From: Acidimicrobiales bacterium
GTDB taxonomy: Bacteria; Actinomycetota; Acidimicrobiia; Acidimicrobiales; CATQHL01
Direction: 5' to 3'
Length of the DNA: 64,000 bases
Assembly: GCA_965221525.1 (NCBI GenBank)
Contig: CBDCSG010000008.1
Coordinates: forward strand, 775,857-839,856
The notes under the pieces are model-generated. The model had not been told where the DNA came from, searched no databases, and saw only the letters and a list, made by a program, of their open reading frames with translations. Shown one piece after another: positions 7,539 through 44,234 of the stretch (positions within the stretch are counted from its first letter, which is position 1; each line of letters opens with the position of its first letter). Position numbers and translations under genes: made by a program.

Positions 7539-7636
7539 ACGCGACGGCTCTACAGACGGGCCGTCCCCGCCAGGCGTCAGCGGTTGAGGGAGGCGTCTCT
7601 GACGGGGTCGGGGGCGTTGTCGGGCCTGGCGGTTGG

Positions 7637-25963: not shown

Positions 25964-26203
25964 CCCCTGAGCCGGCTGCCCGCCCGCGCCTTCGGTCGTC
26001 GTGTGCACCGCTACCACTGTCCGCCTTCTCGCTCTGCCCCGATGTTCAAGATCTCGGAGTCTCACCGTGCCCTGGTGGTTGCCGGATTCCTGTCGGGCAC
26101 GCAACGGTAGCAGCGCGGTTGACCTGGGACCCGTAGGAGCGACCGAGACGACGGGGGCCGGTAAGCGGAAAGCGCGCTGCCGCCCACCGGCCCACTCAGG
26201 AGA

Positions 26204-27460
26204 CTAGGGGGCCCTCGGTGTCGTGATTTGGTAGTTCGCAGGTGCGTGACTCGGGCTTGGGCAGAAGGTTCGAAAATCACATGCCGCACAAGTTGCGTCA
26301 TCACGACAGTTGGGAGACCACGAGCCGAGAATGTCCTGACCGTCGGCTTCTGAAACGATGTCTTCCTCAATCCGCCGAACGACATCGTCGAACTTCTCGA
26401 GAGCTACTTCGACACTGTCGGAAGAAATCGGGATCACCCTGATCGCGCGACGCAGACGGTAGTCAAGCGACAATTGACTGGTCCCTTCCCCGCGCCTCCA
26501 TCGTCGAATCACGCGTTCATCAGCCGAACCCTGCGCGGGAATCACGTCTGTTGTGCCACGCTCAATCCCTTGCTTGAGCTTGACCATCTCCTCGTCGCCT
26601 GGCGACAACTCGTTGATGTAGATCAAGACCCCAGCCGCGACTTGGGGAGCGGAAGGTTGACGCCGCCGTAGCCACGCATATGTCTGGATCTGCCACTCTC
26701 CCTGTTCCCAGTAACTCTCATCGACGAGAGGCCGTCGAGTTCCCTTGTAGTCAACGATCACTTCGAACTCGCCACTTAGCTCTGGGCACAAGGTCCGGAT
26801 CTGTCGACAAATCGGATTCTCGTCTGAATCGGTCGATAGACTGACGTTGGTCAACACATCGATGACGCCGTGCACCTCGTAGTTTTCACAGCGTAGCTCT
26901 ACGGCGCTTTGGCCGACCCTTCGAGTACCGATTACCTGCTGCTCGGCATCTACAATCAGCGGAAACAGATGGGGTCCAAGTTGATTAACGGCATGCTCGA
27001 CCCGTTCGTACGCTGAGTCTCGAGCCGCCGTACTCCGAGCCTGTTTTCCTTGCCTCTGTAACGCCTGCTCGACCGTATCGGCAAATCGCCCGATGTCGTG
27101 GTCGATCCATGCAGGCGGATCCGCACCCCATGGACGTGGCGTACATGGCCAGGGAAAGCTAGGGACCTCGGCTCCTGTCGCTTGTTGATCGGACCAGAAG
27201 CGATAGGCCATCTCAAGTGTTCCGTGCAAGAACTCCCCGAACCACAACTGCACCGGTCGTGACGGGGGAAGTGCGCTGCCGTTGTGATAGCGGTACTGCA
27301 GCCGGCATCGAAGATATGAGAGGAGATCACCCGTGAGCGAATACGATGGAACGATGTGATCAGCAGACTTACGTTGCAGTTCCACTTCTAAATCTCCAAG
27401 AATGGTGTCGATACTGTCACAGGCGGCCTCCTGTGGTCGTGAGGCTGTTGCCACGACCAA
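26204..27460 (-). CDS. Cas4/AddB-like PD-(D/E)xK nuclease with 4-Cys (Fe-S type) cluster
   Basis: GVIDVL..., VIVDYKG (D-x-K), QIQTYAWL (QxxxY). N-terminal Cys (LRCRL) plus C-terminal CAACDFRTFC (CX2CX5C). Alternative GTG start at 27385 with a GGAG RBS, 2 nt after the helicase stop. Confidence 0.65.
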   Translation of the reverse strand: MVVATASRPQEAACDSIDTILGDLEVELQRKSADHIVPSYSLTGDLLSYLRCRLQYRYHNGSALPPSRPVQLWFGEFLHGTLEMAYRFWSDQQATGAEVPSFPWPCTPRPWGADPPAWIDHDIGRFADTVEQALQRQGKQARSTAARDSAYERVEHAVNQLGPHLFPLIVDAEQQVIGTRRVGQSAVELRCENYEVHGVIDVLTNVSLSTDSDENPICRQIRTLCPELSGEFEVIVDYKGTRRPLVDESYWEQGEWQIQTYAWLRRRQPSAPQVAAGVLIYINELSPGDEEMVKLKQGIERGTTDVIPAQGSADERVIRRWRRGEGTSQLSLDYRLRRAIRVIPISSDSVEVALEKFDDVVRRIEEDIVSEADGQDILGSWSPNCRDDATCAACDFRTFCPSPSHAPANYQITTPRAP

Positions 27461-29754
27461 GTCTCATCGCGTCGCCAACCCAGTGCAATATTCTTGGTAT
27501 TGGTATTGTAGCGCAATTGATTGTCATGGCCCACGAGCAAAAGGACACACTGGGCACGACTGAACGAGACATAGTAGAGCCGTGTTAGATCGTCAAAGGT
27601 ACGGTCCATCGCAGTGCGCTGACCTCTAAGCTCAGCACTGAGATGGGGTTCCATGTCGTCCTCGGCTACCACAACGTTCGATATGTCATCGGGGAATCGC
27701 CTGAATCGATGCATCGGATGATCGGTCCGGAACCGTGTGCCGACATCGACGATGACTAGTGGAAACTCAAGACCTTTGGCTTGATGGATCGTCATCAATT
27801 GCAGCATGTCGCGCGGAACGCTTGGCATAATGTCCTCGTCTACCTGGATTTCATCTAGAGCAATCGGAACGAGAGCATCCCTGATCAAGCTTTGCCTGCT
27901 ACGGATCAAGTGGACTCCTTGATTGTGCCTTCCGTCGTTCTGGAGAAGACGCATTCGATATGGAGAGATGCCAGCTGAACTCGCAACAATCCGAGTAATA
28001 GCTTCTAGCCAAACTTGATGTTCAGGTTCTCGCTGGAATTGAGGGAACCAAGTGACTAGAGCGAATATCAGTTCCAAGACCGGGAAGTCGGCTGGGAAGG
28101 AGCTTGCCACTCCACCCGAAGAAACGTGTTGCCACGCTCCGATGTAGCCACCGAGTCCGTTGCGTTCGGACGGTATCGGATTGGAATCAATGAACAGGTC
28201 GGCTAAATCCCGCCAGCGCGTGAGAGCGGAAAGGGCCTCATTGGTCAACTGGTTGCGTGCCCGCATCTCGTCGACGGTAGAACCCAGAGGATCGATCGCT
28301 AGGAGCAAGAGTCCCAGCAGACATCCAACGTCGTCAATTGTCCGAAGCGCTTGACCTCTCGGATTGAAGATGCGTAACCCACGCCTGTGCATCTGCTCTC
28401 TCAGCAGGCTTGGAAATCGAACGATTAGGTCGCCGTTGAAACGATTATAGTCGAGCTCATTCACTGAGTGAGATAGGAAAACGACATCGCCCAAGTCCCC
28501 ACCATCGGGGAGTACGAGTTCCTCGTCGCAATCATCAAGATGCACGGCTCGTTCTTGGGTAAGTGTCCCAAGAAACTTGGCTAGATCACGTGCGAGCAAC
28601 TGCTCATCGCCGCGAAACATACCTAGGACTGGTATCCTGCCGGATTGTCTCGTTGCGAGTACTGGAGCCTTGCCGGGCTGTACGCGGGCTGTCTGATATC
28701 CGGGATCCGCTGAGATGTGCGCGTTTACGAATTCAATGATCTCAGGACGGGAACGAAAGTTCCGGGTCAGGTCGACTCGGCGAGGTGTCCGGTCGGTGGC
28801 AGCATGACACCGTGACGCAAACTCCGTGAACAACTCAACGGATCCACCCCTAAATCTGTACATCGCCTGGTCGTCGTCGCCAACGACTGTCCCGGATAGC
28901 GCGGGATTGCGTAAGAGGTGAAAGTAGATCGCCTCCTGAAGTGGGTTGGTGTCCTGGTATTCGTCTATGAGAACAGCTCGGAGATCCGTGAGCCAATTGT
29001 CCAAGGCTTCTGCTTGAAGTCGGTTCAGGAATTGCTCTTCGAGCAGTGAGAAGTCGAAGAGGTTTGTGCGAGATGCCTCGTCCTTGTGGTCAAACAACAT
29101 GTCGACGACTGTGGCCTCTGCCTCACCTTCTGCTGCATAGCTGTCCAGATCGACACGGTCTTGGATAAGGCGCTCCAAGAGGCGCTTGGTCTCTCCTAGG
29201 GCTGCTGCTTGATTGCGAGGCGGACGGCCGTCGAAAGAGTGCCGCGCTAACAATGCGGCAATAGCGTCTCGTCTGGTGTAGTAGTGGCGTGCGAATGCTC
29301 CGCGTCGAAGAATCAGGAGGCTCGTGGCTGGGTCGGTGACGCCGGGCGGAGTCGTGCCGAGTTCGCGGAATTCTGTAAGCACGCTATGGATGGTGCTATC
29401 CAAGGTGTCGATTCTGCACCTGTTCAAGTCGACATGATCAAGATCATGCTGCTGAGAAAGCTCCTTATGCAAGGTGCCGCCCCAATCCAACCAGCGGCTG
29501 CGGAGTTCACGAGCGGCTCTCCGCGTGAACGTTGTCATCAGAATGCTCTCAGGTAGGAGATTGTCGACGTAGACGAAGTGAAGGGCTCTCAGTACAAGGA
29601 CACTCGTCTTGCCCGACCCCGGCCCCGCCACGAGATGAAGAATCGGATCAAGCCCCTGCGTGATCGCCTCAGCCTGGGCCCGGTTCCCTGGATCCCGAAG
29701 ATTGCGCCCTAGAGTCTCGTCAATGAGCGCGAGGAAGTCGATACTACTAATCAT
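27388..29754 (-). CDS. UvrD/Rep-family SF1 helicase
   Basis: AGPGSGKTS, TFTRRAAREL, VLIDEYQDTNP, VGDDDQAMYRFRGG, TIHQAKGLEFPLV, YYVSFSRAQ. Confidence 0.8.
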   Translation of the reverse strand: MISSIDFLALIDETLGRNLRDPGNRAQAEAITQGLDPILHLVAGPGSGKTSVLVLRALHFVYVDNLLPESILMTTFTRRAARELRSRWLDWGGTLHKELSQQHDLDHVDLNRCRIDTLDSTIHSVLTEFRELGTTPPGVTDPATSLLILRRGAFARHYYTRRDAIAALLARHSFDGRPPRNQAAALGETKRLLERLIQDRVDLDSYAAEGEAEATVVDMLFDHKDEASRTNLFDFSLLEEQFLNRLQAEALDNWLTDLRAVLIDEYQDTNPLQEAIYFHLLRNPALSGTVVGDDDQAMYRFRGGSVELFTEFASRCHAATDRTPRRVDLTRNFRSRPEIIEFVNAHISADPGYQTARVQPGKAPVLATRQSGRIPVLGMFRGDEQLLARDLAKFLGTLTQERAVHLDDCDEELVLPDGGDLGDVVFLSHSVNELDYNRFNGDLIVRFPSLLREQMHRRGLRIFNPRGQALRTIDDVGCLLGLLLLAIDPLGSTVDEMRARNQLTNEALSALTRWRDLADLFIDSNPIPSERNGLGGYIGAWQHVSSGGVASSFPADFPVLELIFALVTWFPQFQREPEHQVWLEAITRIVASSAGISPYRMRLLQNDGRHNQGVHLIRSRQSLIRDALVPIALDEIQVDEDIMPSVPRDMLQLMTIHQAKGLEFPLVIVDVGTRFRTDHPMHRFRRFPDDISNVVVAEDDMEPHLSAELRGQRTAMDRTFDDLTRLYYVSFSRAQCVLLLVGHDNQLRYNTNTKNIALGWRRDETWSWQQPHDHRRPPVTVSTPFLEI

Positions 29755-31492
29755 CCCGAGAACCCCGTCCGATCTGACTGTAAAGCATCAACGTGTTGTG
29801 TGCCCCTCGCCTTCGATTGCGATTCGCGCCGCGAAAGATCGCAATGTGGATACCAATGTCCCTACAGAAGTTGCAATCGCAGTGGCGCCAAGGTCGTTCT
29901 AGTAGGGTCCGGTGGTATCTGCTCCGCATCGATTGGGTCTCGCTGCGTCTAGCCAAGTTGCTGTCGTAGCTCAGTAGTGCGTCCAGCACGAAACGAAGCG
30001 GTACTTCCTCCCTGTCGTACTGACAGAGCAGTCTGAGAACATCGCGTTCCTCTTGCCTTACTGTGTCAAGATCGGCATTGACCTCTTCTAATCGCCGCAG
30101 GACACGGCCATCCGTGGTCATTGGAACGCGCAACGCCGCGTACCATTCGCCTCTTGCGCTCAGATAGTTCTGATCGGAGCGTAGCCATGCCTTACGAAAG
30201 TATGTGGCGCTGTCAAAACTGTCCACCTTGAGTTCTCGGAAGAGGCTCTGCAGCTTCGGCCGGAAAATGCCGAAGAGATGAATCCATGGGCGTTGAGGCA
30301 GTCTTTCCGCAGCCGCTATCACACTCATGACAATGTCACGTATTGCTTTGTCGGGCAGAGGCACGAGGGCACCAACGGCCATGTGGCGGTAGCCGAGATC
30401 ATGATAGTGGTATACGGAGCTTGCGTAGTCGTCAGGGTCAAGCCCGTGCAAGATGCCGACGGGCGTGAATTGTGCCTTTCGCTGCCTTGTCGCTGCAATA
30501 AACCTCTCTGCATTCTGGCGCGTAATCCTGATTCGTTCAGATCGCTCATCGGATGAGAGCGGGATCTTCCTCCCGCCCCTCGTGATTGTCGCAACAGGCA
30601 TATGGTCCACTGACGCACCAAAATCGAATCCGTATGACTCGTATAATGCCACCGCGTTGTCGACTTCGAGAGTTGGATAGTCCTCGTTGACGTAGCTAAA
30701 CGCTCCGCAATCGCCGAAGAGATATTGATCCTCCTTCAGGCCGAAGTGTTGCCGAATCGGTGGTGGCGCGAGGGCAGTCTTCTCAGTACCTTCTGGCCTT
30801 CGGAGGAGACCTTTCTGTGCTTGACATTGGGCAAGACTGAGGAGAATGCCGTCTGCGATTCTTGCTGGTCTGATTAGGTCGGCGCAGTGTCGATCAACCC
30901 GTTCTGCCCGCGTGGGGGCCGAGAACCTGTCGGCCTCGAAGTCGAAATAGGGGTCCAGTAGGTCATCCCAATCCGGCAAGAAATACAGATACTTGCCACT
31001 ACCCCCCCTCATGTGGAGCTTCGCTCGACGTATGGCGTGTGAGTGTTCGAGGAAAGTCTTGACTTGAGACAGCTTCTCGCCGATTGCGCCGGCGAAGATT
31101 GTCGGGGTTATGGCAATCTTATCGAGCGCCGGGTGGATAGCGGGCAAGTAATCTCGCCCGAGTGCGATATCAATCGTGGTATGGGTGTCAGCCCATTTTG
31201 TGAGCACCCTCGAGCATTCGTTGGCTCGAGCGGTAGCTGTCTGCCGATCCATCCTCTTGTCGTAGTTGGGGATGCGCTTGAAGATGCCGAACAATCCGTG
31301 CTCCGCGGAGAGGACACCGACAGACACGTTGGTAGGCCAGTGATGTTCTCTCAAGAACTTCCGCAAGACTCGATACGCTGGCCCGTCATAGCGATCAAGG
31401 GCGGGCAGGAGTCCTGCGGAATCTCGCTTGAGGTCCGAGCAGCCAAGAATGAGCAGCTTCTGACCGTCCGATGGGGCGCACGATGTTGGCAT
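29747..31492 (-). CDS. Fusion of a DUF6884-like N-domain with a tRNA-guanine transglycosylase (TGT)/DpdA-like domain
   Basis: N-terminus LLILGCSDLKRDSAGLLPALDRYDGPAYRVL. TGT-like GDCGAFSY (compare DSGGFQ), IHLFG, DSFDSATY. Zn motif HCDCNFC...GAHN (CxCxxC...H). AAGGAAA RBS. 8-nt overlap with the helicase start. Confidence 0.55.
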   Translation of the reverse strand: MPTSCAPSDGQKLLILGCSDLKRDSAGLLPALDRYDGPAYRVLRKFLREHHWPTNVSVGVLSAEHGLFGIFKRIPNYDKRMDRQTATARANECSRVLTKWADTHTTIDIALGRDYLPAIHPALDKIAITPTIFAGAIGEKLSQVKTFLEHSHAIRRAKLHMRGGSGKYLYFLPDWDDLLDPYFDFEADRFSAPTRAERVDRHCADLIRPARIADGILLSLAQCQAQKGLLRRPEGTEKTALAPPPIRQHFGLKEDQYLFGDCGAFSYVNEDYPTLEVDNAVALYESYGFDFGASVDHMPVATITRGGRKIPLSSDERSERIRITRQNAERFIAATRQRKAQFTPVGILHGLDPDDYASSVYHYHDLGYRHMAVGALVPLPDKAIRDIVMSVIAAAERLPQRPWIHLFGIFRPKLQSLFRELKVDSFDSATYFRKAWLRSDQNYLSARGEWYAALRVPMTTDGRVLRRLEEVNADLDTVRQEERDVLRLLCQYDREEVPLRFVLDALLSYDSNLARRSETQSMRSRYHRTLLERPWRHCDCNFCRDIGIHIAIFRGANRNRRRGAHNTLMLYSQIGRGSRDD

Positions 31493-31700: not shown

Positions 31701-31985
31701 TCAGTCCGATCGATGCCACGCGTGCGGCGCGAGGAAGGCACGGAGGTGACCTGCGACGGAGTTCGGCTGGCCAATCGGGATGAGGGTTCGGTTGTCGTCG
31801 ATCCACACGAGTTCGGTGTTCTGGAAGTGGTCGGCGAGTCGTTCGGCGTGGGTGGGGCATGATCTTGTCTTCTCGTGCCCAGATGACGAGGACCGGGCTG
31901 GCGAAGGCGCACTGCTGGGCGGCCCAGTCGAGCAGCAGCAGGGGTCCCGGGACGTTGCGGAGGTACTTGGGCGAGATCGCGGCGG
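31701..31985 (-). pseudogene. Alpha/beta-hydrolase C-terminal fragment
   Basis: THAERLADHFQNTELVWIDDNRTLIPIGQP...HLRAFL is near-identical to 33785-34006. The upstream part is out of frame. Confidence 0.6.
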
Positions 31986-31989
31986 ACCT

Positions 31990-32162
31990 TGGGGTGGTGG
32001 CGCCGAGACGGTCGGCATGTCGGTGAGCTTCGACTTAGAGTCGTCCTGGGCCATCGTCAGCAGGAATCGTCGGTCCACCTCCGAGAGCGTCTTCCGGGTG
32101 GGGGCGAAGGCCATCCGGCCGATACGCCACTCGCGGATCTCCTCGACGTCGCCACTTTGCAT
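31990..32162 (-). pseudogene. Fragment of an HTH-containing regulator/ATPase gene
   Basis: TLSEVDRRFLLTMAQDDSKSKLTD matches the fuller fragment at 39214-39480. Confidence 0.45.
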
Positions 32163-33243
32163 CTGGTCGATGGTGATCAGCAGGCCCGTCTCGTGCTCGG
32201 CGAGCGCGTCGCCGAGATCGGGCAGGGCTCCCCTGTAGCCGTTGGCGGGCTTTAGGAGTTTTGTGAGCTTTAGTCGTTTTGTCAGCTTTAGTAATTTGGC
32301 TCTGGACTCGCCCGTGGGTTCCTCACGATCAGCGGCAACTCGGGGGCTGGGCGCAGTGGGTGGGTTCGGGGACTGTCCACCGGTCTGATGCGATTACGCG
32401 AGGTAGCGCGCCTCGCCGGGCCGGGGGAACCCCACCGAGCACCCGGTTCGTCCCGTACCCGGGATGGATCCCTCGTCGCCTGCGCCCGCAAGGCGCTCGC
32501 GCGGGCGGGCGGTCTACAGGAGGAAGAACGATGAGCCGAGCGGAGACCCGGCCGTGGGACGCGGCCGACCATCTGGAGACCACCGGGGGCATGGTCGCCT
32601 ACCTGGAGGCGGCTCTGGAGCAGGACGATCCCAGGTCGTGGCGGCCGTGGTCGGTGACATCGCCCGAGCACAGGGGATGACCAAGGTTGCCCCCGAGGCC
32701 GGGCCGGGCGGGGAGAGCCTCGACAGGTGAGCTCTGAGTTCAGCCCAGCGGGCGCGGGCCTGGCGGTGGGGTTCGGTGGCTGCCGATTCGTCCAGAACCT
32801 CAAGACGCACTGTGCCCGAGGCGGCCAGTCGGGCGATCACAGCGGGGAGTTCCTCCCAGGGTGTCTCGACAATGGCGGGACCGGCGCGCAGGACCTCCAG
32901 CACGGCGACCTCCTCTGGTGTGAGCGAGTGGACCAGCCGATCGATCGGGCGCTGTGTGAAGCGCACTCCCGGACAGGGTCCTGGCGCTCGGCCGGGCACC
33001 GCGGCGAGGAACGTCGCCGGAACCTGCGACGTGAGGCCCAGCCAATTCGCCGCTGTGACCCCGGCGGGACCCGAGCCCCGCCCACCGAGTCGGAGAGCGA
33101 CCTCGTCGATTCTGGGCGGCGACATGCCCAGTGGCGTCGTTGTCCCCTTCCAGTACAGGCCCTTGCGGACTCGCAAGACGTCGCCGGCGGCGCACAGGCG
33201 GCAGAACGCCGACTCGACAGCGCTGCGCGACCCGCCGACGTCG
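32015..33243. repeat. Left copy of a ~1.23-kb direct repeat (HTH fragment, higA-like, abiEi/DUF6088-like)
   Basis: Aligns by eye with 39335-40566 with few substitutions. Confidence 0.8.
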
Positions 33244-33784: not shown

Positions 33785-34433
33785 TCAGGTGCGCGTGGCG
33801 AGGAAGGCGCGGAGGTGGTCGGTCAGGAGTTCAGGTTGGTCGATGGGGATGAGGGTGTAGCTGTCGTCGATCCACACGATTTGCGTGTTCTGGAAGTGGT
33901 CGGCGAGTCGTTCGGCGTGGGTGGGGGGCATGAGTTTGTCTTCTCGTGCCCAGATGATGAGGACCGGGCCGGCGAAGGTGCGCTGCTGGTCGGCCCAGGC
34001 GAGCAACTGCTGGGGTTTGGGGACGTTGCGGAGGTACTTGGCGAGGTCGCGGCGGACCTTGGGGTCTTGGCGCAGCGGACCGATCCAGCTCCTGAAGAGG
34101 TCCTCGGGAACCCGCTGCTTGGACAGGGCGCCGAAGAGGGAAGGGGTCGTTGCAGACCACGGTGACCTGGTGCAGGTCCAGTTCGGCGAGGAACTCGGCG
34201 AGGCTGGTGGCGAGCGCCGGGAGGGAGAGGTCGGCGTCGTCGGGCATCGGCGTGGTGTGCGCGCCGAACGGCAACTCCGGGACGACGCAGCGGTAGCGAT
34301 CCCCGAGGCCGGCGACGACAGCGTCCCACAGGGTGCCGTTCATCAACACCCCGTGCAGCAACACCACCACCGGCCCGTCGCCGCCGGTGTCGGAATACAT
34401 GAGGCCGGCGGTCGTCGGCCCCTCCAGCTGCAT
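33785..34433 (-). pseudogene. Alpha/beta hydrolase with frameshift and internal deletion
   Basis: N-terminal part (...VVVLLHGVLMNGTLW...VTVVCND) and C-terminal part (LLAWADQQRTFAGPVLIIWAREDKLMPP...) are in different frames. Total length is shorter than usual for the fold. Confidence 0.65.
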
Positions 34434-34508: not shown

Positions 34509-35132
34509 TCAGGACTTGAGATAGTTCGTGTCGTCCCGCACATAGCCGAATCGTCGTTCGTCCAGTTGGTGATTCCAGAGGGGTCGAGCTGGGACGCGCA
34601 GCGGCCATTGCCGAGAGCCGGGCCCTACCCATGTGGCCGTCTCGACTCGCCGACCAGCCTCGAGGGCGACCTCAATCGCCGGGATCAGGTCGGTATCAGC
34701 CGATACGACGACGGCGACGTCGTATCGGTCGTCTCGGGCGCCCAGAGCGACGTCAAGGGCGATGAGTACATCAATGCCCTTTTCCTCGCCGCGCCACTCG
34801 GACGGAGCCCCGGAAGACCAGGCAATCGGCTGGTAGCGGAGCGGTCGGGTCCTGACCGTGAGCAGTGGCATTTGCTTCCACGCGTCGACCTGGCGGGCGA
34901 AGGCCGCCTGCAGGTTCCGATGGCTCTTCGAGCCGGGCTGGCCCCGGTACACCGTCACACTGGTCAACTCACGGTTCGGGTCGACCTCCTCGCCAAGTTG
35001 AGTGAGGAGTACGCCCAGCCTCAACGGGTTGACGTGTCCCATCGTCGGCGGGGCGGTTCGTGGGCTGCCGAAGACCTCTCGTGCCCCGTGATAGACGTTC
35101 TGGTAGTCAATGAACACCGCGACGCGCGTCAT
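34509..35132 (-). CDS. NYN (LabA/DUF88-like, PIN-related) domain protein
   Basis: VAVFIDYQNVYHGA...EKGIDVLIALDV...VVVSADTDLIPAIE. Confidence 0.7.
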   Translation of the reverse strand: MTRVAVFIDYQNVYHGAREVFGSPRTAPPTMGHVNPLRLGVLLTQLGEEVDPNRELTSVTVYRGQPGSKSHRNLQAAFARQVDAWKQMPLLTVRTRPLRYQPIAWSSGAPSEWRGEEKGIDVLIALDVALGARDDRYDVAVVVSADTDLIPAIEVALEAGRRVETATWVGPGSRQWPLRVPARPLWNHQLDERRFGYVRDDTNYLKS

Positions 35133-35257
35133 TGGCTCATCACCTCACCCCGAAACGATAAGCCCCGCCATTCCCGGCGAGCCGGGAAGGCGGGGAGGAA
35201 TGTCAGCATCTTATCGACTCGACGTAGTTCTGCAAGTGGTTTCTGCTGGGCTCCTCC

Positions 35258-36784
35258 TCATGAGCGTTGCCACGGCAGATGCCCGGGTGGCCTGTCCAAC
35301 CATCGGTAGACCGCCTGGGTTCTGTCGTCGATCCAGCGGCGCAGGCGCACGCGGGCGCCCCGACACGAGGCCCGTTCCCGCTGTCGTTCCGCTTCCATGT
35401 GGCGGTCGGTGAGTGTTGCGCGGCGGTCGCCGACGCCTTCGGTTGGCTCGACCGGGCAGTGCGACCGCGTTGTACCGCCGACGTGTTCGAGGAGGTGTGT
35501 GCTGAGTCCGTACCTGAGGGGGCCAGGGTCTCCGACGCCTCCGGGACCAACGCTGAAGCTGGTGTACTGCGCCAGCAGACCAGCGGAGACGCTTGCCGAC
35601 AGTGTCGCGACGTTCTGACCCCGTGGTGGCGCTGACCGGTCCATCTGGGCGATGTATTCGGGATCGTCGAGGAGTCCTTCTTTGTCGGGCAGCACGAGGC
35701 TGAGGTCGAGTTGGCCGTTGCAGCTCATGCAGGGTCGACCGGGCCGGATGACGTGGGTTCGCCATGTGGCGTTGCGCATGGTTCCGTCGTCGAGGGTGTC
35801 GATCGCGATGCCGCCGTCGAGGACGGGGATGAGGTCGCTGTAGGCCAAGGCGTTGAGAACGGCTCGAGGCCAGGGGCGGTCGACGCAGCAGAAGATCAGA
35901 TCGTGGTCGAGCGCCAGTTGCTGGCCGGCGGGCTCGCAGATGGAGAGGTCTGAGGTTTCGATTTTCGGATCGGCGTCGGTTGCCGCGGCGAGCGCTTGGC
36001 GGCGCGCGACGTGGATCTTCGGCCGCACTAGGTGCGCGTCGCGGGGGGTGGCGCCAATGAGCCGGTCGAGGTTGCGGTCCTCGACGAGGTCGAAGTCCAT
36101 GACGGTGAGATGGCGGACGCCGGAGGCAGCGAGCCGGACGACGACATCGAGGCCGACGCTGCCGGCGCCGACGACGAGGATGCGGCGCCGCGCCAAGTCG
36201 GCCTGACAACGGTCACCCCACGCGCTCACCGTGCGGATCTGGCGGTGTGTCGTCATCGGCGGCGGGACCAGGGTGTCGTTCCAGGAGACGGAGAGTTGGT
36301 CGCCGACGACCCGGACGTTCGTGGCATGGGTGCAGTCGACGTCTTGTCCCGCTCCGCGGTTCCAATGCCGGGCCGACCACGTTGTGTCACCGGTGGCCAG
36401 GGTCATGCCCACGAGGGGCAGACCGGTGAATTCGCGGGCGAGGCTTGCGTAGCTCGCTTCGGCGATGCGGTCGGGTCCGCTCATCGGCTGCCACCGCGTG
36501 GCGTTGGGATGGCTGTGCAGCAGAACCAAACCGCAGCCTTTCGCTCGGGCAATGCCGGCACCGCGCAAGACGTAGTTGCCGGTAACCGTGGCATTTCCAT
36601 GGACGTGGCGTTCTCCGGGCTCGGGCACGATCACCGAGGTGATCAGGGCGGTGCGGCGTGTGGTGCCGGTCGACGATCGATAGGTCGCCAGGCAGAGGTC
36701 TTCCTGACCGTCGGGGCGCACGAGCCGATCCAGCAGGTGCCGTTCGGTTGCTGCGGTCATGGCGACCGAGGTGCTGGTCGTCAC
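35258..36784 (-). CDS. JAB/MPN metallopeptidase fused to an E1-like ThiF/MoeB adenylyltransferase
   Basis: JAMM motif LLHSHPNATRWQPMSGPD. Rossmann motif ILVVGAGSVGLDVVVRLAASG. GTG 36784 overlaps the E2 stop (GTGA); the ORF track starts at 36826. Confidence 0.7.
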   Translation of the reverse strand: MTTSTSVAMTAATERHLLDRLVRPDGQEDLCLATYRSSTGTTRRTALITSVIVPEPGERHVHGNATVTGNYVLRGAGIARAKGCGLVLLHSHPNATRWQPMSGPDRIAEASYASLAREFTGLPLVGMTLATGDTTWSARHWNRGAGQDVDCTHATNVRVVGDQLSVSWNDTLVPPPMTTHRQIRTVSAWGDRCQADLARRRILVVGAGSVGLDVVVRLAASGVRHLTVMDFDLVEDRNLDRLIGATPRDAHLVRPKIHVARRQALAAATDADPKIETSDLSICEPAGQQLALDHDLIFCCVDRPWPRAVLNALAYSDLIPVLDGGIAIDTLDDGTMRNATWRTHVIRPGRPCMSCNGQLDLSLVLPDKEGLLDDPEYIAQMDRSAPPRGQNVATLSASVSAGLLAQYTSFSVGPGGVGDPGPLRYGLSTHLLEHVGGTTRSHCPVEPTEGVGDRRATLTDRHMEAERQRERASCRGARVRLRRWIDDRTQAVYRWLDRPPGHLPWQRS

Positions 36785-37128
36785 GACGTGGCGTCCTTGA
36801 GGACGGCCTGGATGTGAGCAGCCCAATCATGCGCCGCCGGGGCGGAACCCCAGTTCTGGATGTTCCGGCTGTGTTTCAGCCAGCCGCCCTTCGGCGAGGA
36901 CTGGCTGTTCGTATTTGGGAACCCGACCTCACAGGGCAGATGAACCCAATGTGGCGGCGTCAGGGGCCATGCCGTGAGTTCGTCAACGGCGACACCCACC
37001 TCCACCAAGCTCCCGGCGCGTGCCCCCGCGACGGGTGTGACATGGCAGATGACGAGCCCGGCCTCCACACGTGGCGAGAGGCCGAGATCTGACATCGCTT
37101 CGACGAACCCGTCGGGACCGGATCCCAT
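36781..37128 (-). CDS. Prokaryotic E2-like (Prok-E2 family) protein
   Basis: WPLTPPHWVHLPCEV with a candidate catalytic Cys. Size and operon position between the Ubl and JAB-E1 genes. TGATG overlap with the Ubl gene. Confidence 0.5.
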   Translation of the reverse strand: MGSGPDGFVEAMSDLGLSPRVEAGLVICHVTPVAGARAGSLVEVGVAVDELTAWPLTPPHWVHLPCEVGFPNTNSQSSPKGGWLKHSRNIQNWGSAPAAHDWAAHIQAVLKDATS

Positions 37129-37385
37129 CACGCGACCGGAGCACTCGTGCGGATCGACACGAAGCGTTCGTCCTTGTCGATGGTCACGGGTTCGTCGTCC
37201 TTGAACGGCTTCCTCGGCGGGCCCTCCTTGGGCACTTCGGCCAGATCGAACAAGGCAGGATCGAGGCCGGCCAGCTTCAGCAGGTCTTCGGCCCGCTGCG
37301 TGCGTTGGTCGGTCTCGTAGGGTTTGCCGTCGATCGTGAACGGGATCCGGCGCCCGGACACCTCGAGTTCAACTGGGTTTGACAT
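37128..37385 (-). CDS. Ubiquitin-like beta-grasp protein (Multi_ubiq-type single domain)
   Basis: 85 aa, ...FTIDGKPYETDQRTQRAEDLLKLAGLDPALFDLAEV...DDEPVTIDKDERF. AGGAAGGA RBS. First gene of the operon. Confidence 0.5.
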   Translation of the reverse strand: MSNPVELEVSGRRIPFTIDGKPYETDQRTQRAEDLLKLAGLDPALFDLAEVPKEGPPRKPFKDDEPVTIDKDERFVSIRTSAPVA

Positions 37386-37420
37386 GCTGCATTCCTTCCT
37401 GGAATAGACGAGCAGGGTTA

Positions 37421-37481
37421 CTATTCCCTGAGGATAGCACCTCTAGGAGAACACATCAAACGACCTATTCTGTTAGGATAG
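37421..37481. promoter_or_regulatory. Two copies of the imperfect palindrome CTATTC-N5-GGATAG (putative XRE operator pair)
   Basis: ctattccctgaggatag at 37421-37437 and ctattctgttaggatag at 37465-37481. A half-site GGAATAG lies at 37401-37407. Located in the divergent intergenic region. Confidence 0.5.
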
Positions 37482-37486
37482 GAACG

Positions 37487-37951
37487 ATGGCTGATGGCAG
37501 AGGCCTCGGAGTCAGACTCCGTGCCCGCCGATTAGCGCTCGGCATGACACTCGCGGAGGTTGCCGAAGCGGCAGGGCTGTCGCTGCCCTACGTGTCGAAC
37601 CTTGAGCGAGGCCGGGGCAATCCGACCCTCGACGCTTTGAGGTCGCTGGCCGAAGCGCTACAGCAGCCGCTGTCCGACCTCCTCGGCGACGACGCAACGG
37701 AGAGCAGCTTCGACCCACAGGATCTCGTTCTCGACCAAGCCCCGCCATCACTGCGCACGTTCACACAGACCGTCCGATTCCGGGACGCCGTGGCTCGGCT
37801 GGCATCCCAGCACGATCTCCCGGAGGCAGAGATGCGCAGGCGCCTGATGATCGGCATGGCATCCGCGCCGCGACGGAGCACGGGTCAGCCGGCCGAGGAC
37901 GACTGGCGCCGCCTACTTGATGCGTATTCCTTGATACTCAGCGACCGGTAG
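37487..37951 (+). CDS. XRE-family HTH transcriptional regulator (CapH-like position)
   Basis: LGVRLRARRLALGMTLAEVAEAAGLSLPYVSNLERGRGNPTLDAL. Confidence 0.75.
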   Translation: MADGRGLGVRLRARRLALGMTLAEVAEAAGLSLPYVSNLERGRGNPTLDALRSLAEALQQPLSDLLGDDATESSFDPQDLVLDQAPPSLRTFTQTVRFRDAVARLASQHDLPEAEMRRRLMIGMASAPRRSTGQPAEDDWRRLLDAYSLILSDR

Positions 37952-37961
37952 CCCACGGGCT

Positions 37962-39011
37962 GTGCCAACGCGCGCCGCCATCAGCAGAATCGTCGAGCGG
38001 ATGCTCGCCGCCGTTCCCCCTGAGGTACTCGAGGACCTGCGGGACGAGGACCCCGCCACCGCAGTCGAGGTGCACTACCCACCCGTACGCGTCCTTCCTC
38101 TGCCACCCGAGAACATCACCAGCGGGGACTGCTCCGTACACGGCTACTACGAGCAATTCCTCGACCCGGCGCGGCCGAGCATCCTCTACTCAAGCGCGGT
38201 CACACCGGAGCGGGCGCGGTTCACGATCCTCCACGAACTCGGACACCACATTTTCGTCACCCCCGGAGACGGGCTCCTCAGTCATGTGGACCAAGTCGCC
38301 GGTGCCCGGGGTGATCCCAACGAGGTCGAAGAAGAGGCGTGTGACCAGTTTGCCGGACAGGTGCTTGTGCCTACAGAGCTACTGGAGCAGATCATCGGCA
38401 ATGGCCCAGTGAAGCCGAGGCACGTCCTAGAAGCGCGCCAGTTGACGAACGCGAGTTGGGAAGCAGTCGCCGTCCGAGTGGCGAACTATCCGGAGAGGCG
38501 GACAGCGGTCGTCTTGATCCGGGAGCAGGGACGGGTGTCGTTCGTGGCGAGGAACGGTCTACAGGCATGGCCTCGCGACTGGTTGGTCCAGCCGAGAGGA
38601 CCGCTTGACCGGGCGCTTCGATACGACTCCAAGTGCAGGCCCGATGTCTACCGCTATGGCCTCGCGGGAGCGGAGAATCTGTACTGCGACACCGCGCGGG
38701 TTGACCATCGTCTCGCGGTCGCGGTCATGGCACCGCAACGCAGCGACGGCGGGCTCACGGTCCTCGAGCCTGTCGACCCTACGTGGAAAACGCGGGAGCA
38801 GTCGTGCGAATGGTGCGGTGACGAGCGCGACTTCGGGTGGTGCGACTATTGCCGTGGGCGAAGATGCCGAACGTGTCGCCGGTGCGGCTGCCAGAAACCG
38901 ATCGAGAACCCGGTCTGCCCCGAATGCCATCTTGAGAATCCCTTACGGCCGGGAGCGCTGGTCTGCCGAGACTGTGAAGCCGACGGGCTGGGGCCTGACC
39001 GCCGCCCGTGA
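37962..39011 (+). CDS. ImmA/IrrE-family (M78) metallopeptidase with Cys-rich C-terminal zinc-ribbon-like tail (CapP-like position)
   Basis: HELGHH zinc motif. C-terminal CEWCG...CDYCRGRRCRTCRRCGC...CPEC...CRDC. Confidence 0.7.
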   Translation: MPTRAAISRIVERMLAAVPPEVLEDLRDEDPATAVEVHYPPVRVLPLPPENITSGDCSVHGYYEQFLDPARPSILYSSAVTPERARFTILHELGHHIFVTPGDGLLSHVDQVAGARGDPNEVEEEACDQFAGQVLVPTELLEQIIGNGPVKPRHVLEARQLTNASWEAVAVRVANYPERRTAVVLIREQGRVSFVARNGLQAWPRDWLVQPRGPLDRALRYDSKCRPDVYRYGLAGAENLYCDTARVDHRLAVAVMAPQRSDGGLTVLEPVDPTWKTREQSCEWCGDERDFGWCDYCRGRRCRTCRRCGCQKPIENPVCPECHLENPLRPGALVCRDCEADGLGPDRRP

Positions 39012-39213: not shown

Positions 39214-39480
39214 TCAGCACCGGGCGGCGTGGTGGGCGAGGGTGATGCGGCCCCAGCCTGTGGGGAGGATCATGCCGGCGCGCAGGAGTCGTTGCCGGTA
39301 GACGCCGGAATACCCGGTAGCGATGCCGAGGCGGTCGGCGATGTCGGTGAGCTTCGAGTCGGTGTCGTCCTGAGCCATCGCCAGCAGGAATCGTCGGTCC
39401 ACCTCCGAGAGCGTCCTCCAGGTGGGGGGCGAAGACCATCCGGCCGCTGCGCCGCTCGCGGATCTCCTCGATGTCGCCAC
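39214..39480 (-). pseudogene. C-terminal HTH fragment of a regulator/ATPase gene
   Basis: TLSEVDRRFLLAMAQDDTDSKLTDIADRLGIATGYSGVYRQRLLRAGMI. The upstream part is in another frame. Confidence 0.45.
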
Positions 39481-39850
39481 TCTGCTTGTCGTCGACGGTG
39501 ATCAGCAGGCCCGTCTCGTGCTCGGCGAGCGCGTCGGCGGGATCGGGCAGGGCTCCCCTGTGGCCGTTTGTGGGCTTTAGGAGTTTTGTGAGCTTTAGTC
39601 GTTTTGAAGTCTTTAGTAGTTCGGCTCCGGACTCGCCCGTGGGTCCGTCACGATCAGCGGCAACTCAGCGGCTGAGCGCAGTGGGTGGGTTCGGGGACCG
39701 TCCACCGGTCTGATGCGATCACACGAGGTAGCGCGCCTCGCCGGGCCGGGGAACCCCACCGAGCACCAGGTTCGTCCCGTACCCGGATGGAACCCTCTTC
39801 GCCTGCGCCCGCAAGGCGCTCGCGCCGGCGAGCGGTCTACAGGAGGAAGA

Positions 39851-40054
39851 ACGATGAGCCGAGCGGGAACCCGGCCGTGGGACGCGGCCGACCATCTGGA
39901 GACCACCGAGGACATGGTCGCCTACCTGGAGGCGGCTCTAGAGCAGGACGATCCCCAACTCGTGGCGGCCGTGGTCGGTGACATCGCCCGAGCACAGGGG
40001 ATGACCAAGGTTGCCCCCGAGGCCGGGCCGGGCAGGGACAGCCTCTACAGGTGA
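39851..40054 (+). CDS. HigA-family antidote-like protein, C-terminally truncated (67 aa)
   Basis: MSRAGTRPWDAADHLETTEDMVAYLEAALEQDDPQLVAAVVGDIARAQGMTKVA...SLYR stops inside the expected HTH. Confidence 0.5.
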   Translation, partial: TMSRAGTRPWDAADHLETTEDMVAYLEAALEQDDPQLVAAVVGDIARAQGMTKVAPEAGPGRDSLYR

Positions 40055-40566
40055 GCTCTGAGTTCAGCCCAGCGGGCGCGGGCCTGGCGGTGGGGTTCGG
40101 TGGCTGCCGATTCGTCCAGAACCTCAAGACGCACTGTGCCCGAGGCGGCCAGTCGGGCGATCACAGCGGGGAGTTCCTCCCAGGGTGTCTCGACAACGGC
40201 GGGACCGGCGCGCAGGACCTCCAGCACGGCGACCTCCTCTGGTGTGAGCGAGTGGACCAGCCGATCGATCGGGCGCTGTGTGAAGCGCACTCCCGGACAG
40301 GGTCCTGGCGCTCGGCCGGGCACCGCGGCGAGGAACGTCGCCGGAACCTGCGACGTGAGGCCCAGCCAATTCGCCGCTGTGACCCCGGCGGGACCCGAGC
40401 CCCGCCCACCGAGTCGGAGAGCGACCTCGTCGATCCCGGGCGGCGACATGCCCAGTGGCGTCGTTGTCCCCTTCCAGTACAGGCCCTTGCGGACTCGCAA
40501 GACGTCGCCGGCGGCGCACAGGCGGGAGAACGCCGACTCGACAGCGCTGCGCGATCCGCCGACGTC
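40045..40566 (-). pseudogene. AbiEi/DUF6088-like antitoxin-domain gene, 5-prime truncated copy
   Basis: Same sequence as 32727-33243. Upstream of 40566 the ORF continues into unrelated sequence. Confidence 0.5.
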
Positions 40567-40712: not shown

Positions 40713-40870
40713 TCACCCGAGCTCGGCGAGGAAGGTGTGGAAATCCGGTTGGTGCCAAACGCGACATTCGCTTGGTGCTCTCAGGTCGTGCGGCACCACC
40801 ACCGGCCCGCCGCCGGCGTCGCAATACATGAGACCGGCAACTCGGCCCCTCGAGCTGCATCCCCAGACCC
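40713..40870 (-). pseudogene. Alpha/beta-hydrolase N-terminal fragment
   Basis: ...AGLMYCDAGGGPVVV... and ...FLAELG resemble 34140-34433, with frame changes. Confidence 0.4.
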
Positions 40871-40953
40871 CCTCGCTGGCGAACTGCACCCACATAGTCA
40901 CTTCCGTCTCGCGGAAATCACGGTACCGGCTGCCGATGTGCCGATAGGTTGCA

Positions 40954-41706
40954 GTGGTGCCAGACGACCTGCCGTACTCCAAGGGTCGCATCGACCGGGC
41001 CGGTGGGGCCCTGCGGCGGCACCTGACCGGCGACGCCCCACCGCTGTCGCAAGCCGAACTCGACACCGAGATCGCCGTCGTCGAGGTGTTCCGATCTGAG
41101 CACCGTGATCCGTTGCGGAAGGCCCGGATGGGCCTCCGGTCGTGCGTGGACACGGAGGGCCTGCAGGCCGTCGAGTTCGGCCAGCGTCTCAAGCGGACAC
41201 CGACGATTGTGGACAAGCTGCGGCGGCTTCCGACGATGAAGCTGTCGAGCATGCAGGACATCGGCGGCTGCCGAGCGGTGTTCGCGACGCCCACGGAGGT
41301 CGCGCACGTGCGGGACAGGTTCACCCGCAACAGCTTCAACCGAAACGGTGTCGAGGACACCGTTCGCGACTACGCGGCGAACCCTCGTTCCTCCGGTTAC
41401 CGCGGCGTCCACGTCTGGACCCGCTACGACGGTCGGCGCATCGAGGTGCAACTCCGCACACGGCTGCAGCACCAATGGGCCAAGCTCGTCGAGACGCTCG
41501 TGGTAATAAGCGGCGTCGACTACAAGAGCGGTGACGGCCATGAGGTCGTGCACGACTGGCTCCGGCGGCTGTCCGAGGGGTATGCGATCAACGAGGCGGA
41601 CCGGCCGGTCAGCAGGGTCTTCAGGGCGGAGTACGATGAGTTGCAGGCAGCAGCGTGGGCTCTGCTCGACACCGATGCGGGGCAAGGAGGCGGGATCCAT
41701 GGCTAG
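40954..41706 (+). CDS. RelA/SpoT-domain protein (small alarmone synthetase-like, toxSAS candidate)
   Basis: RLKRTPTIVDKLRR...MQDIGGCRAVF...DYAANPRSSGYRGVHVW...IEVQLRTRLQHQWAKLVE. Confidence 0.75.
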   Translation: MVPDDLPYSKGRIDRAGGALRRHLTGDAPPLSQAELDTEIAVVEVFRSEHRDPLRKARMGLRSCVDTEGLQAVEFGQRLKRTPTIVDKLRRLPTMKLSSMQDIGGCRAVFATPTEVAHVRDRFTRNSFNRNGVEDTVRDYAANPRSSGYRGVHVWTRYDGRRIEVQLRTRLQHQWAKLVETLVVISGVDYKSGDGHEVVHDWLRRLSEGYAINEADRPVSRVFRAEYDELQAAAWALLDTDAGQGGGIHG

Positions 41707-42702: not shown

Positions 42703-44049
42703 TTACGGGCGCAGGTGTGTGATCGGCACGATGGCGATTCTGTCGGCGGTCTCGAATGCCCGGCCCGTGGCGGTGATGATCATCAGACGGCGTGGTTCAC
42801 CCGCACGCCCGGTGTCCACGTTCTCCCGCAGTCTGCGCAGCGCCTCGACGCCTTTCTCGATGAGGCGGGGGCCGCCGAGCTTGACCTCCACAGCAGCCCA
42901 GTCGCCGTGGCCGCGGGTGATGATCGCGTCGACCTCGTGGTTGGCGCTGTCGCGGTAGTACCGCACCTCTGCGCCGGATCGTTGCGCATAGACCCGCAGG
43001 TCGCGCACCACCAGCGACTCGAACAGCAGGCCGAGCGTCTCCGGATCGTCCAGGAGGCCCTGGGGGGTGGCCTGGAGTGCGGCCGCGGCCATGGAAGGAT
43101 CCGCGTAGTAGCGCTTGGGCTTGATGCGCAGCGTCGCGCTGCTGCGCAGGTGCGTTGACCAGGCGGGCAGCGGCTCGATGACGAACGCCGCGACGAGCCG
43201 GTCGAGGTAGCGCCCGACCGTGTCCCGATCGGCGGGGCCTCCGGCGTTGGCGGTGTCGGCGAGGAGTGTGCGGGCCGATGCGGCTGTCGCCTCGTTGCGG
43301 GCCAGCGAGGTCATGAGCGCCAGCATCTTGGAGGGATCGTGGCTTGCCGGTTGGTTCGTGGCGAGGTCGATCCGGGCGATATCGGTGAGGTAGTCGCGCA
43401 TGCGGTCCCGGGCGTCGAGAGCGTCGAGCGCGATCAGGCCGGGCAGGCCGCCCCGGCACACCAACTCGGCCACCCGCGCCAGCCCGGAGGGACGATCCCC
43501 GAGGACCCCGCCGACTCCGGCGGCGGCGCCCGCTGCGGTGGTGCCGGTCGCATCGGGTCCCGGGGCGTCGGCAGCGCACAGGTCGCCCTCCAGCAGCCCG
43601 CCCAGCGAGATGGCGCCGGTGGAATCACCCGATTCGAACAGGGACATGGGGCGCATCCGCAGCCGGGTGACCCGCCCCGCTCCGCTGTGGTCGGTCCGGA
43701 CGCGGGCCGGATCCACCGAACCGGTCAGGATGAACTGGCCGTTGAGCGCCCGGTCGTCACAGGCGTGGCGCATTGCATTCCACAGTCCGCCGGCCAGGTG
43801 CCACTCGTCGAGAAGGCGCGGCGTTTGGCCTGCGAGGAACGACGCCGGCTCGATTTCCAGCCGCAGCCGTGCCGCCTCGAGTTCGTCGAAGCGGACCTCG
43901 CTGGTGGCGAACCGCCTGCCCGTCCACGTCTTGCCGCACGCCCGGGGGCCCTCCACGACGATCGCAGGTGCCGTACGGAGCATGCGCTCCATCTGCGCGT
44001 CGACCACACGGGGCAGATATCCCGCCGGAGTGAGGAGCGATGAGGCCAT
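42703..44049 (-). CDS. AAA_14 ATPase with DUF4143 domain
   Basis: VVEGPRACGKTW Walker A, LLDEW, and the C-terminal ...HEVDAIIT...AAVEVKLG pattern. Confidence 0.7.
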   Translation of the reverse strand: MASSLLTPAGYLPRVVDAQMERMLRTAPAIVVEGPRACGKTWTGRRFATSEVRFDELEAARLRLEIEPASFLAGQTPRLLDEWHLAGGLWNAMRHACDDRALNGQFILTGSVDPARVRTDHSGAGRVTRLRMRPMSLFESGDSTGAISLGGLLEGDLCAADAPGPDATGTTAAGAAAGVGGVLGDRPSGLARVAELVCRGGLPGLIALDALDARDRMRDYLTDIARIDLATNQPASHDPSKMLALMTSLARNEATAASARTLLADTANAGGPADRDTVGRYLDRLVAAFVIEPLPAWSTHLRSSATLRIKPKRYYADPSMAAAALQATPQGLLDDPETLGLLFESLVVRDLRVYAQRSGAEVRYYRDSANHEVDAIITRGHGDWAAVEVKLGGPRLIEKGVEALRRLRENVDTGRAGEPRRLMIITATGRAFETADRIAIVPITHLRP

Positions 44050-44234
44050 ACCGCAAAATATATCATATGGATACCGCAATATATGTGATCATAATCCCGC
44101 AAAATACGCGGATGGAATACCGCACAATGTGCACTGTCCATGCCTTGGTGCGGGGCTCACGGGATCGTTGTGGCCTGTGGCTACTGTCCGGCCGGTTGGG
44201 TCTGCCGGCTCGGGCGGGCCAGACTTGGGGGGCC

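Follow-up and report, generated by a model that had tools for sequence, protein, structure and literature searches.

Two kinds of bacterial operon for the conjugation of ubiquitin-like (Ubl) proteins stand closest to the locus described here. Those of the Bil type (BilABCD; Millman 2022; Chambers 2024; Hör 2024) act against phages through conjugation of a Ubl to phage proteins (summarised in PMC11601596 and PMC10557695). Those of the Bub type, also known as '6E' or DUF6527, employ a tyrosine within the E1 crossover loop and a serine in the E2, and their intermediates are oxyesters rather than thioesters, as shown for Tyr370 and Ser333 of the Citrobacter system (PMC11601596). The type I example is the BubAB-BubCD-BubE operon of Citrobacter sp. 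RHBSTW-00271 described by Ye, Gong, Chambers & Corbett (PMC11601596), which corresponds to class 6e of Iyer et al. 2006 (PMC1779556). Bub operons are defined by bubE (DUF6527), with the statement that 'all Bub operons possess bubE' (PMC11601596). In 31% of Bub and 15% of type II Bil operons, genes for the regulators CapH and CapP lie upstream in divergent orientation (PMC11601596, PMC10557695), and Lau et al. 2022 reported CapH/CapP beside a 'multi-ubiquitin + E1-like' operon (10.1101/2022.04.27.489752). We analysed a stretch of 64,000 nucleotides from an Acidimicrobiales bacterium (contig CBDCSG010000008.1 of assembly GCA_965221525.1), hereafter the window, in which positions 34509-39011 hold genes for a Ubl, an E2-like protein, a JAB-E1 fusion and a NYN-domain protein on the minus strand and, divergently, for an XRE-family repressor and an M78 metallopeptidase (Table 1).

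A three-gene operon of likely Bub lineage

We consider it likely that positions 35258-39011 form a self-contained Ubl operon of the Bub or '6E' lineage under divergent control of the DdrO/IrrE type, which is that of CapH/CapP. All six genes at 34509-39011 were confirmed from the list of open reading frames (ORFs) and the sequence. Database matches to the JAB-E1 protein number more than 2800, the best 120 at 67-88% identity, and a scan of genomes with one genome per species found 392 loci encoding it; these matches indicate that the six ORFs are real genes and not chance frames. The counts of loci given below (n = 80) refer to the best 80 of the 392. The gene order Ubl-E2-JAB/E1 is kept in all 80 homologous loci across many phyla, which include Acidimicrobiia, Dehalococcoidia, Caldilineaceae, Alpha-, Gamma- and Deltaproteobacteria, Latescibacterota, Gemmatimonadota, Acidobacteriota, Myxococcota, Spirochaetia and many Actinomycetes. 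Metagenomic relatives of the cassette are L081-L084 (85% identical, from a metagenome bin) and L085 (87% identical).

The three genes are tightly joined. The junction between Ubl and E2 reads GTGATG, in which a GTG or ATG start overlaps the TGA stop, and JAB-E1 likely starts with the GTG at 36784, which overlaps the E2 stop as GTGA. The JAB-E1 protein carries the motifs HSHP...SGPD and GAGSVG. An original prediction made from the sequence had listed the six genes with their motifs and coordinates, translational coupling at both junctions, a JAB-E1 fusion with JAMM and Rossmann motifs, a Ubl ending in APVA, the intergenic region between the Ubl and XRE genes at 37386-37486, and a divergent XRE and ImmA/IrrE pair of the CapH/CapP kind. 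Each of these agrees with the ORF list, the sequence or the profile matches, and the assignments of the Ubl, the E2 and the JAB-E1 hold when compared by profile and structure. The same prediction had named Bil-type variants as the antiphage relatives of such operons; that this is a Ubl/E2/JAB-E1 operon was correct, but the closest known system is Bub (6E) and not Bil.

Between the window protein and the JAB-E1 proteins of L001-L041, encoded in metagenome-assembled genomes (MAGs) from some ten phyla, identity is 64-73%. For a gene of a mobile defence type such values are unusually high, and they suggest recent horizontal spread in a common habitat. Several of the MAGs are probably from sponge symbionts, as the genus names Poriferisocius and Poriferisodalis suggest. 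The operon is also found on actinobacterial plasmids of Mycobacterium, Rhodococcus and Nocardioides, where RefSeq labels the products as 'hypothetical protein' twice and 'ThiF family adenylyltransferase'. A phage collection searched with the JAB-E1 protein returned no relatives.

Predicted active sites of the JAB-E1 and E2 proteins

When the JAB-E1 family profile was run against the PDB, Citrobacter BubCD was the best solved structure (E = 1.9e-20), with residues 9-352 aligned over both domains. Among 78 JAB-E1 sequences of 51-88% identity, E28, H90, H92 and D105 of the JAB domain are invariant, and so are R241, K256 and D302, the nucleotide-binding glycines G206, G208 and G211, and Tyr377 in the crossover loop. 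Between E1 positions 356 and 442, these 78 sequences share no conserved cysteine. Tyr377 lies 25 residues past the last position aligned with BubCD (residue 352, equivalent to BubCD 342), and Tyr370 of BubCD lies 28 past it. The residues C352, C355, H430 and C443 are invariant in the same 78 sequences. C352xxC355 coincides with the zinc-binding CxxC of ThiF and MoeB, where the zinc is structural, and by analogy with these structures we read C352/C355, H430 and C443 as a putative structural zinc site.

The E2-like protein was more difficult to place. Neither the single protein nor a profile of 33 sequences gave a significant match in Pfam, NCBIfam, PADLOC or the PDB sequences. A large search for homologues yielded 16 sequences, and a model built from 17 sequences with AlphaFold2 (AF2) reached a predicted local distance difference test score (pLDDT) of 92.8. 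The best fold match of this model in the PDB was Citrobacter BubB (9eae_C; probability 0.98, template modelling (TM) score 0.58, Foldseek E = 0.039), followed by UbcH7, Ubc12 and other E2s. Since the Foldseek E-values are weak, with none at or below 0.001, the fold was assigned from the consistent run of E2 folds that heads the list. There is also a transitive sequence link: the family profile found 96 clusters among 1.8 billion representatives, and P0263, a remote member of the family, scores above the threshold of Pfam Prok-E2_E at 1.6e-7. Prok-E2_E is the E2 family of class 6e.

The cysteine in PPHWVHLPC, to which the original prediction had pointed in the E2, did not survive comparison with the family. 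Cys67 is present only in the window protein; it is an arginine in a 92%-identical homologue and an alanine in the family consensus, and no cysteine is conserved anywhere in the E2 family alignment. Instead, Ser88-Arg89 is invariant, and even the most divergent representatives retain Ser-Arg, in the form FSR, WSR or MSR. The family motif is H87-S88-R89, with no histidine at +2. In the model, Ser88 follows the last strand and precedes the long C-terminal helix, and by secondary-structure register we infer that it would be placed as the catalytic cysteines of E2s are. Because Ser88-Arg89 and Tyr377 are invariant and neither site has a conserved cysteine, the operon is expected to follow oxyester chemistry of the Bub type, and we lean toward a mechanism with a tyrosine on the E1 and a serine on the E2.

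A single-domain Ubl that ends in Val-Ala

The Ubl scored against Pfam Multi_ubiq at E = 3.5e-4, which is weaker than the cutoff of the family, and PF14452 is recorded on three of its homologues. An AF2 model (pLDDT 78) showed beta-grasp topology with a floppy tail. Its top fold matches in the PDB were Bub multi-ubiquitin proteins (8u38, 9d5b, 9cd2, 9d5a) and BubA(155-229) (9ea8_B), with E-values from 6e-5 to 9e-4 and TM scores of about 0.7. In 76 of the 79 Ubl family members x-Val-Ala directly precedes the stop codon, and no C-terminal Gly-Gly was found in the alignment of these 79. Ubl and E2 are fused in the rare relatives P0179, P0261 and P0258, and the junction in P0179 reads ...AEVA-GGR-MMSSG.... 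These fused proteins recall the BubAB fusion of type I and may bridge it to the split Ubl and E2 genes of the window.

Comparison with Bub and Bil systems

The operon shares with type I Bub a JAB-E1 fusion that is homologous over both domains and has an identical pattern of JAB active-site residues, an E1 crossover loop with an invariant tyrosine and no cysteine, and a diverged E2 of the UBC fold in which an invariant serine replaces the cysteine. Its Ubl is a beta-grasp protein of the multi-ubiquitin type, with one domain in the window and one to three in Bub. Divergent regulators of the CapH/CapP type are frequent in both, and both lie in mobile or defence regions. Unlike type I Bub, Ubl and E2 are encoded here by separate, translationally coupled genes and not by a BubAB fusion, and the Ubl ends with Val-Ala at its stop codon, whereas a glycine is exposed by JAB cleavage in Bub. 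The E1 of the window also keeps a set of residues resembling a Cys3His zinc site, in which it departs from type I.

A further difference from type I Bub is that neither the window nor a set of about 80 related loci yielded a gene for the BubE/DUF6527 serine protease. Pfam scans of the neighbours took only the longest ORF on each flank, so that a small gene could escape, and with this limit no DUF6527 was detected in 75 downstream and 73 upstream neighbours, nor in the six window proteins. The BubE signatures CxCxC...CxxH and Cx3C..Hx2C were absent near the core genes in the window and in 85 loci. Since the fusion, the exposure of a glycine by cleavage and BubE are all missing, the operon falls outside type I Bub as currently defined, and it would be best described as a BubE-less, unfused Bub-like variant.

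BilABCD also brings Ubl, E2, JAB and E1 functions together in one operon without a separate effector gene, and some Bil operons are under divergent CapH/CapP regulation. However, JAB and E1 are separate genes in Bil and are fused here; the E1 and E2 of Bil use cysteines, and here neither the E2 nor the E1 loop has a conserved one; the Bil Ubl ends in glycine after processing, which is not so here; and BilD has the IAD-AAD-CYS architecture, in contrast to the single adenylation domain fused to JAB in a protein of 508 residues.

Divergent regulators and the shared promoter

The best PDB matches of the XRE protein were DdrO proteins (E = 1.5e-11), and its C-terminal domain is conserved. The M78 peptidase has HELGHH at residues 91-96, and its best PDB match was Deinococcus IrrE (E = 8.8e-8). 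As in CapH/CapP and DdrO/IrrE, the pair thus consists of an XRE repressor with a C-terminal domain of the oligomerisation type and an HExxH peptidase of the M78 family, encoded divergently from a common promoter. This promoter region contains two 17-bp palindromes of the form CTATYC-N5-GRATAG, at 37421-37437 and 37465-37481. They are the only two matches to this pattern in the 64 kb, where 0.06 would be expected by chance, and six homologous loci (including L001, L003, L037, L081 and L085) have degenerate palindromes at both of these positions. We regard the two palindromes as candidate operators for the XRE repressor.

Of the 80 genome loci, 4 have an XRE and peptidase gene pair like that of the window, as do the closest metagenomic relatives. 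Across the operon family, Peptidase_M78 was found in 23 of 73 upstream neighbours, a share close to the 31% given for Bub operons with both CapH and CapP. The pairing of divergent CapH/CapP-type regulators with a Ubl operon is therefore already known in kind from these reports, and regulation of the operon by the XRE protein and the M78 peptidase is well supported by the context.

The peptidase has one feature of its own. Twelve cysteines arranged in CxxC-type pairs fill residues 282-338 (38805-38975 of the window), and the alignment of the 6 closest homologues shows strict conservation of this tail in every one. No such tail, of about 57 residues in the window protein, is described for CapP or IrrE, which are made of peptidase, HTH-like (helix-turn-helix-like) and GAF domains, and it has no place in the CapP architecture of Lau et al. 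(10.1101/2022.04.27.489752). The tail could be a zinc-ribbon cluster, possibly one that senses nucleic acid.

About 37 of the 80 loci carry a different set of genes, comprising a Sigma70_r4 protein, a protein of about 330 residues without a known family, and an SMC/RecF-like AAA ATPase (for example L025 5825-9295 on the minus strand, and L145 6651-10170). This set stands in place of the XRE protein and peptidase and may be an alternative control or sensor module. At least three putative upstream control modules occur in the family: an XRE protein with an M78 peptidase, a single M78-domain protein, and a sigma-70-like protein with the 330-residue protein and the SMC-like ATPase.

The NYN gene as a likely independent unit

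The original prediction had placed the NYN gene 3' of the E1 on the same strand and regarded its product as a possible effector or target linked to the Ubl operon. The adjacency was right, although the spacer is 125 nt long and not 126 as had been stated; the functional link is contradicted by the co-occurrence counts and by the leader of the gene. Within 10 kb of the operon, no NYN homologue occurs at any of the 80 loci. Conversely, only one of 59 loci with NYN homologues contains the operon, and this is the contig of L081. No neighbour of NYN is conserved across these 59 loci, and the genes downstream of the operon are heterogeneous, with no family in more than 2 of 75 loci.

In L085, an RVT_1 reverse-transcriptase gene (9642-11219) fills the slot of NYN directly 3' of the E1 and is followed by a JetD-like gene. 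In L081, an RVT_1 gene and DndB are located a few kb downstream.

The nucleotide identity between positions 34509-39011 of the window and 3495-8006 of L081 is uneven. The peptidase and XRE genes agree at 72% of nucleotides, and Ubl, E2 and E1 at 82-87%; identity then rises to 95% in the 125-nt spacer and 97% in NYN, with the break at the stop codon of the E1. Such mosaic divergence indicates that the NYN module has been exchanged or homogenised independently of the operon.

The spacer folds strongly (z-score -3.86). On the minus strand at 35163-35196 it contains a GC-rich hairpin composed of UCCCCGCC, a variable inner stem and UGGCGGGG, and a U-rich tract follows. The hairpin recurs 20-45 nt 5' of NYN homologues of 43-71% identity (L087-L143) in unrelated contexts. 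Compensatory changes were observed in 10 of its 12 pairs with 95% of cells paired, a result matched by 0 of 500 shuffles and compared with 39-53% in slid controls. The exact hairpin motif was found in 47 NYN loci and in no locus without NYN. Of 35 sequences, 24 have a -10 hexamer of the form TAnnnT at a distance of 8-17 nt (mostly 11-13) 5' of the hairpin; the window copy reads TAAGAT and lies at 35208-35213. A search of Rfam with the leader matched no family. A second match to the hairpin pattern in the window, at 7564-7607, is not beside a NYN gene and was taken as chance.

Since NYN homologues elsewhere carry the same -10 hexamer and the same covarying hairpin, the spacer belongs to NYN and not to the operon. 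Together with the overall architecture proposed above, and with the same good degree of confidence, we regard NYN as a unit apart from the operon that moves independently and has a promoter and a terminator-like leader of its own. The hairpin has the appearance of a terminator or attenuator close to the promoter and specific to this NYN family. It probably also ends the transcript of the Ubl operon and would in this way insulate NYN from read-through.

As a stand-alone gene among defence genes, the window NYN resembles HEC-09 of Payne et al. 2024, although its match to that profile (E = 5.9e-12) ends at position 142 of 203 and so leaves the rest of the profile uncovered. HEC-09 is an unvalidated NYN candidate that gave no protection in the published tests, and the passages searched in that paper make no mention of the leader hairpin (10.1101/2024.01.29.577857). 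A PIN-domain gene near the operon on a Rhodococcus plasmid (L146 6566-7760), accompanied by an HTH gene, was considered as an analogue of NYN and rejected; it is convergent and has no detectable similarity.

Genomic surroundings

The window is high in G+C, with a lower stretch at about 17-31 kb that falls markedly, to 54-58%, at 26-31 kb. The cassette sits in a defence island (Table 1), and related loci adjoin genes for DndB, reverse transcriptase, DarT, JetD and toxin-antitoxin systems. Direct repeats bracket the cassette, and the duplicated alpha/beta-hydrolase gene fragments around it also flank the cassette in L081, L083 and L085. The repeats and fragments suggest a hot spot of insertion or recombination with variable cargo. 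No tRNA genes were found in the window.

Table 1. Features of the Ubl locus and of its surroundings, in window coordinates.
Feature	Position	Strand	Remarks
NYN-domain gene	34509-35132	-	207 aa; Pfam NYN E=2.9e-12; PADLOC HEC-09 E=5.9e-12
E1-NYN spacer / NYN leader	35133-35257	-	125 nt; -10-like TAAGAT, hairpin, U-rich tract, then ribosome-binding site
JAB/JAMM peptidase-E1 adenylation fusion, BubCD homologue	35258-36784 (open frame to 36826)	-	508 aa; Pfam ThiF E=1e-26
E2-like gene	36781-37131	-	116 aa; contains PPHWVHLPC; UBC-like fold
Ubl gene	37128-37385	-	85 aa, single beta-grasp domain; ...APVA then stop codon
Divergent promoter region common to operon and regulators	37386-37486		101 nt; two 17-bp palindromes
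XRE-family HTH repressor gene	37487 (ATG)-37951	+	154 aa; Pfam HTH_3 E=4e-15; PADLOC capH E=7.5e-13
M78 (ImmA/IrrE/CapP-like) metallopeptidase gene	37962-39011	+	349 aa; Pfam Peptidase_M78 E=4e-11; PADLOC capP E=3.4e-20
DUF4365+HEAT protein	14237-17134		
Type ISP restriction-modification enzyme	21392-26104		
PD-(D/E)XK protein	26204-27460		
UvrD helicase	27388-29754		
TGT/DUF6884 protein	29747-31492		
RelA/SpoT-domain protein	40954-41706		
AAA_14/DUF4143 ATPase	42703-44079		
Direct repeats bracketing the cassette	32017-32929 and 39341-40253		89-98% identical
Duplicated alpha/beta-hydrolase gene fragments	31717-31970 and 33786-34041; further piece 40790-40880		

Discussion

We propose the following working for the operon. 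An XRE dimer would bind the two palindromes and repress both its own gene pair and the operon, as their position and the CapH/DdrO paradigm suggest. Upon DNA damage or phage infection, the M78 peptidase would become active and cleave the repressor, by homology with its characterised relatives. The E1 domain, whose adenylation residues are conserved, would adenylate Ala85 at the C-terminus of a Ubl that is encoded already in its 'mature' form. From there the Ubl would pass via oxyesters, on Tyr377 of the E1 and then on Ser88 of the E2, as conservation, the lack of cysteines and the chemistry of BubCD and BubB would have it, and it would end on target proteins. Since the Ubl here needs no processing, the N-terminal JAB domain with its intact E-HxH-S-D site would most likely act as a deconjugase that strips the Ubl from conjugates.

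Several points weigh against this proposal or parts of it. The equation of Tyr377 with BubCD Tyr370 and of Ser88 with BubB Ser333 is one of position in the loop and the fold alone, and no sequence alignment of the E1 crossover loop with BubCD was obtained past residue 352. The invariant C352 and C355 of the E1 could be catalytic instead of structural. The E2 has His-Ser-Arg where Bub has Ser-x-His plus an aspartate (S333/H335/D299), and a C-terminal Val-Ala would be an unusual substrate for an E1. A promoter scan of the divergent region found no canonical sigma-70 hexamers. As for a role in defence, protection against phage is yet to be demonstrated for the Bub operons characterised so far (PMC13373217).

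We considered whether the locus might be a defence unit of four genes, with the NYN RNase as effector or target of Ubl conjugation and under joint control of the XRE/ImmA pair. The position of NYN, 125 nt 3' of the E1 on the same strand, would fit such a unit, as would the same arrangement in L081-L084 and the match to the candidate defence family HEC-09. The counts argue strongly otherwise, with NYN at 0 of 80 operon loci and the operon at 1 of 59 NYN loci, heterogeneous genes downstream and RVT_1 in the same slot. So do the jump in identity at the spacer, from 72-87% to 95-97%, and the -10 hexamer and hairpin that NYN owns, and a four-gene unit is very improbable. A classical thioester cascade of the Bil type, with catalytic cysteines that include the one in HLPC of the E2, fares little better and is highly unlikely. 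Although Cys67 of the window E2 follows PPHW..HLP in a manner that recalls HPN...C, it is unique to the window copy and the E2 family has no other conserved cysteine. The invariant C352/C355 at the base of the E1 crossover loop could likewise be taken for such a site, but C352xxC355 stands at the position of the zinc CxxC of ThiF and MoeB; the single adenylation domain with JAB is furthermore like BubCD and not like the IAD-AAD-CYS of BilD.

A function outside immunity has more to be said for it, though we regard it as unlikely. The operon could serve a pathway of protein modification in DNA damage or stress, given that its regulators most resemble Deinococcus DdrO/IrrE, which run the DNA-damage regulon, and that the stopping of phage by Bub operons has yet to be demonstrated (PMC13373217). 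However, the loci occupy variable insertion sites and occur on plasmids and within defence islands. It could also encode a sulfur carrier like ThiS or MoaD, and the E1 domain does score against MoeB and ThiF models. Here the absence of a rhodanese domain, of biosynthetic neighbours and of a C-terminal Gly-Gly speaks to the contrary, as does the strict co-inheritance of an E2-fold protein and a JAB peptidase. The context of the island and the type of regulator make a role in antiphage or stress defence most likely for the Bub-like operon; for an antiphage role in particular we see an even chance.

The operon may represent a third, as yet undescribed type of Bub. This type would be defined by three genes without BubE, a pre-processed Ubl ending in alanine, an oxyester relay from tyrosine to Ser-Arg and a JAB domain that is solely a deconjugase. 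It would combine high conservation across phyla and horizontal spread through apparently sponge-derived MAGs and actinobacterial plasmids with at least three upstream control modules. Apart from the operon, the NYN leader hairpin would be one not catalogued before and may gate the expression of a toxic RNase. The odds for and against this proposal as a whole appear to us balanced.

The negative result on NYN counts in its own right, as a pairing of Ubl conjugation with a NYN effector should not be propagated. The current RefSeq labels leave the Ubl/E2/JAB-E1 family invisible to annotation. Bacterial Ubl conjugation is a young field, in which the antiphage mechanism of Bil has been demonstrated and the oxyester chemistry of Bub is unprecedented. 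The minimal, unfused three-gene relative described here, with its 392 loci, would offer a simpler system in which to ask what the targets of the pathway are, whether BubE is dispensable and whether a C-terminal alanine can be activated by an E1.

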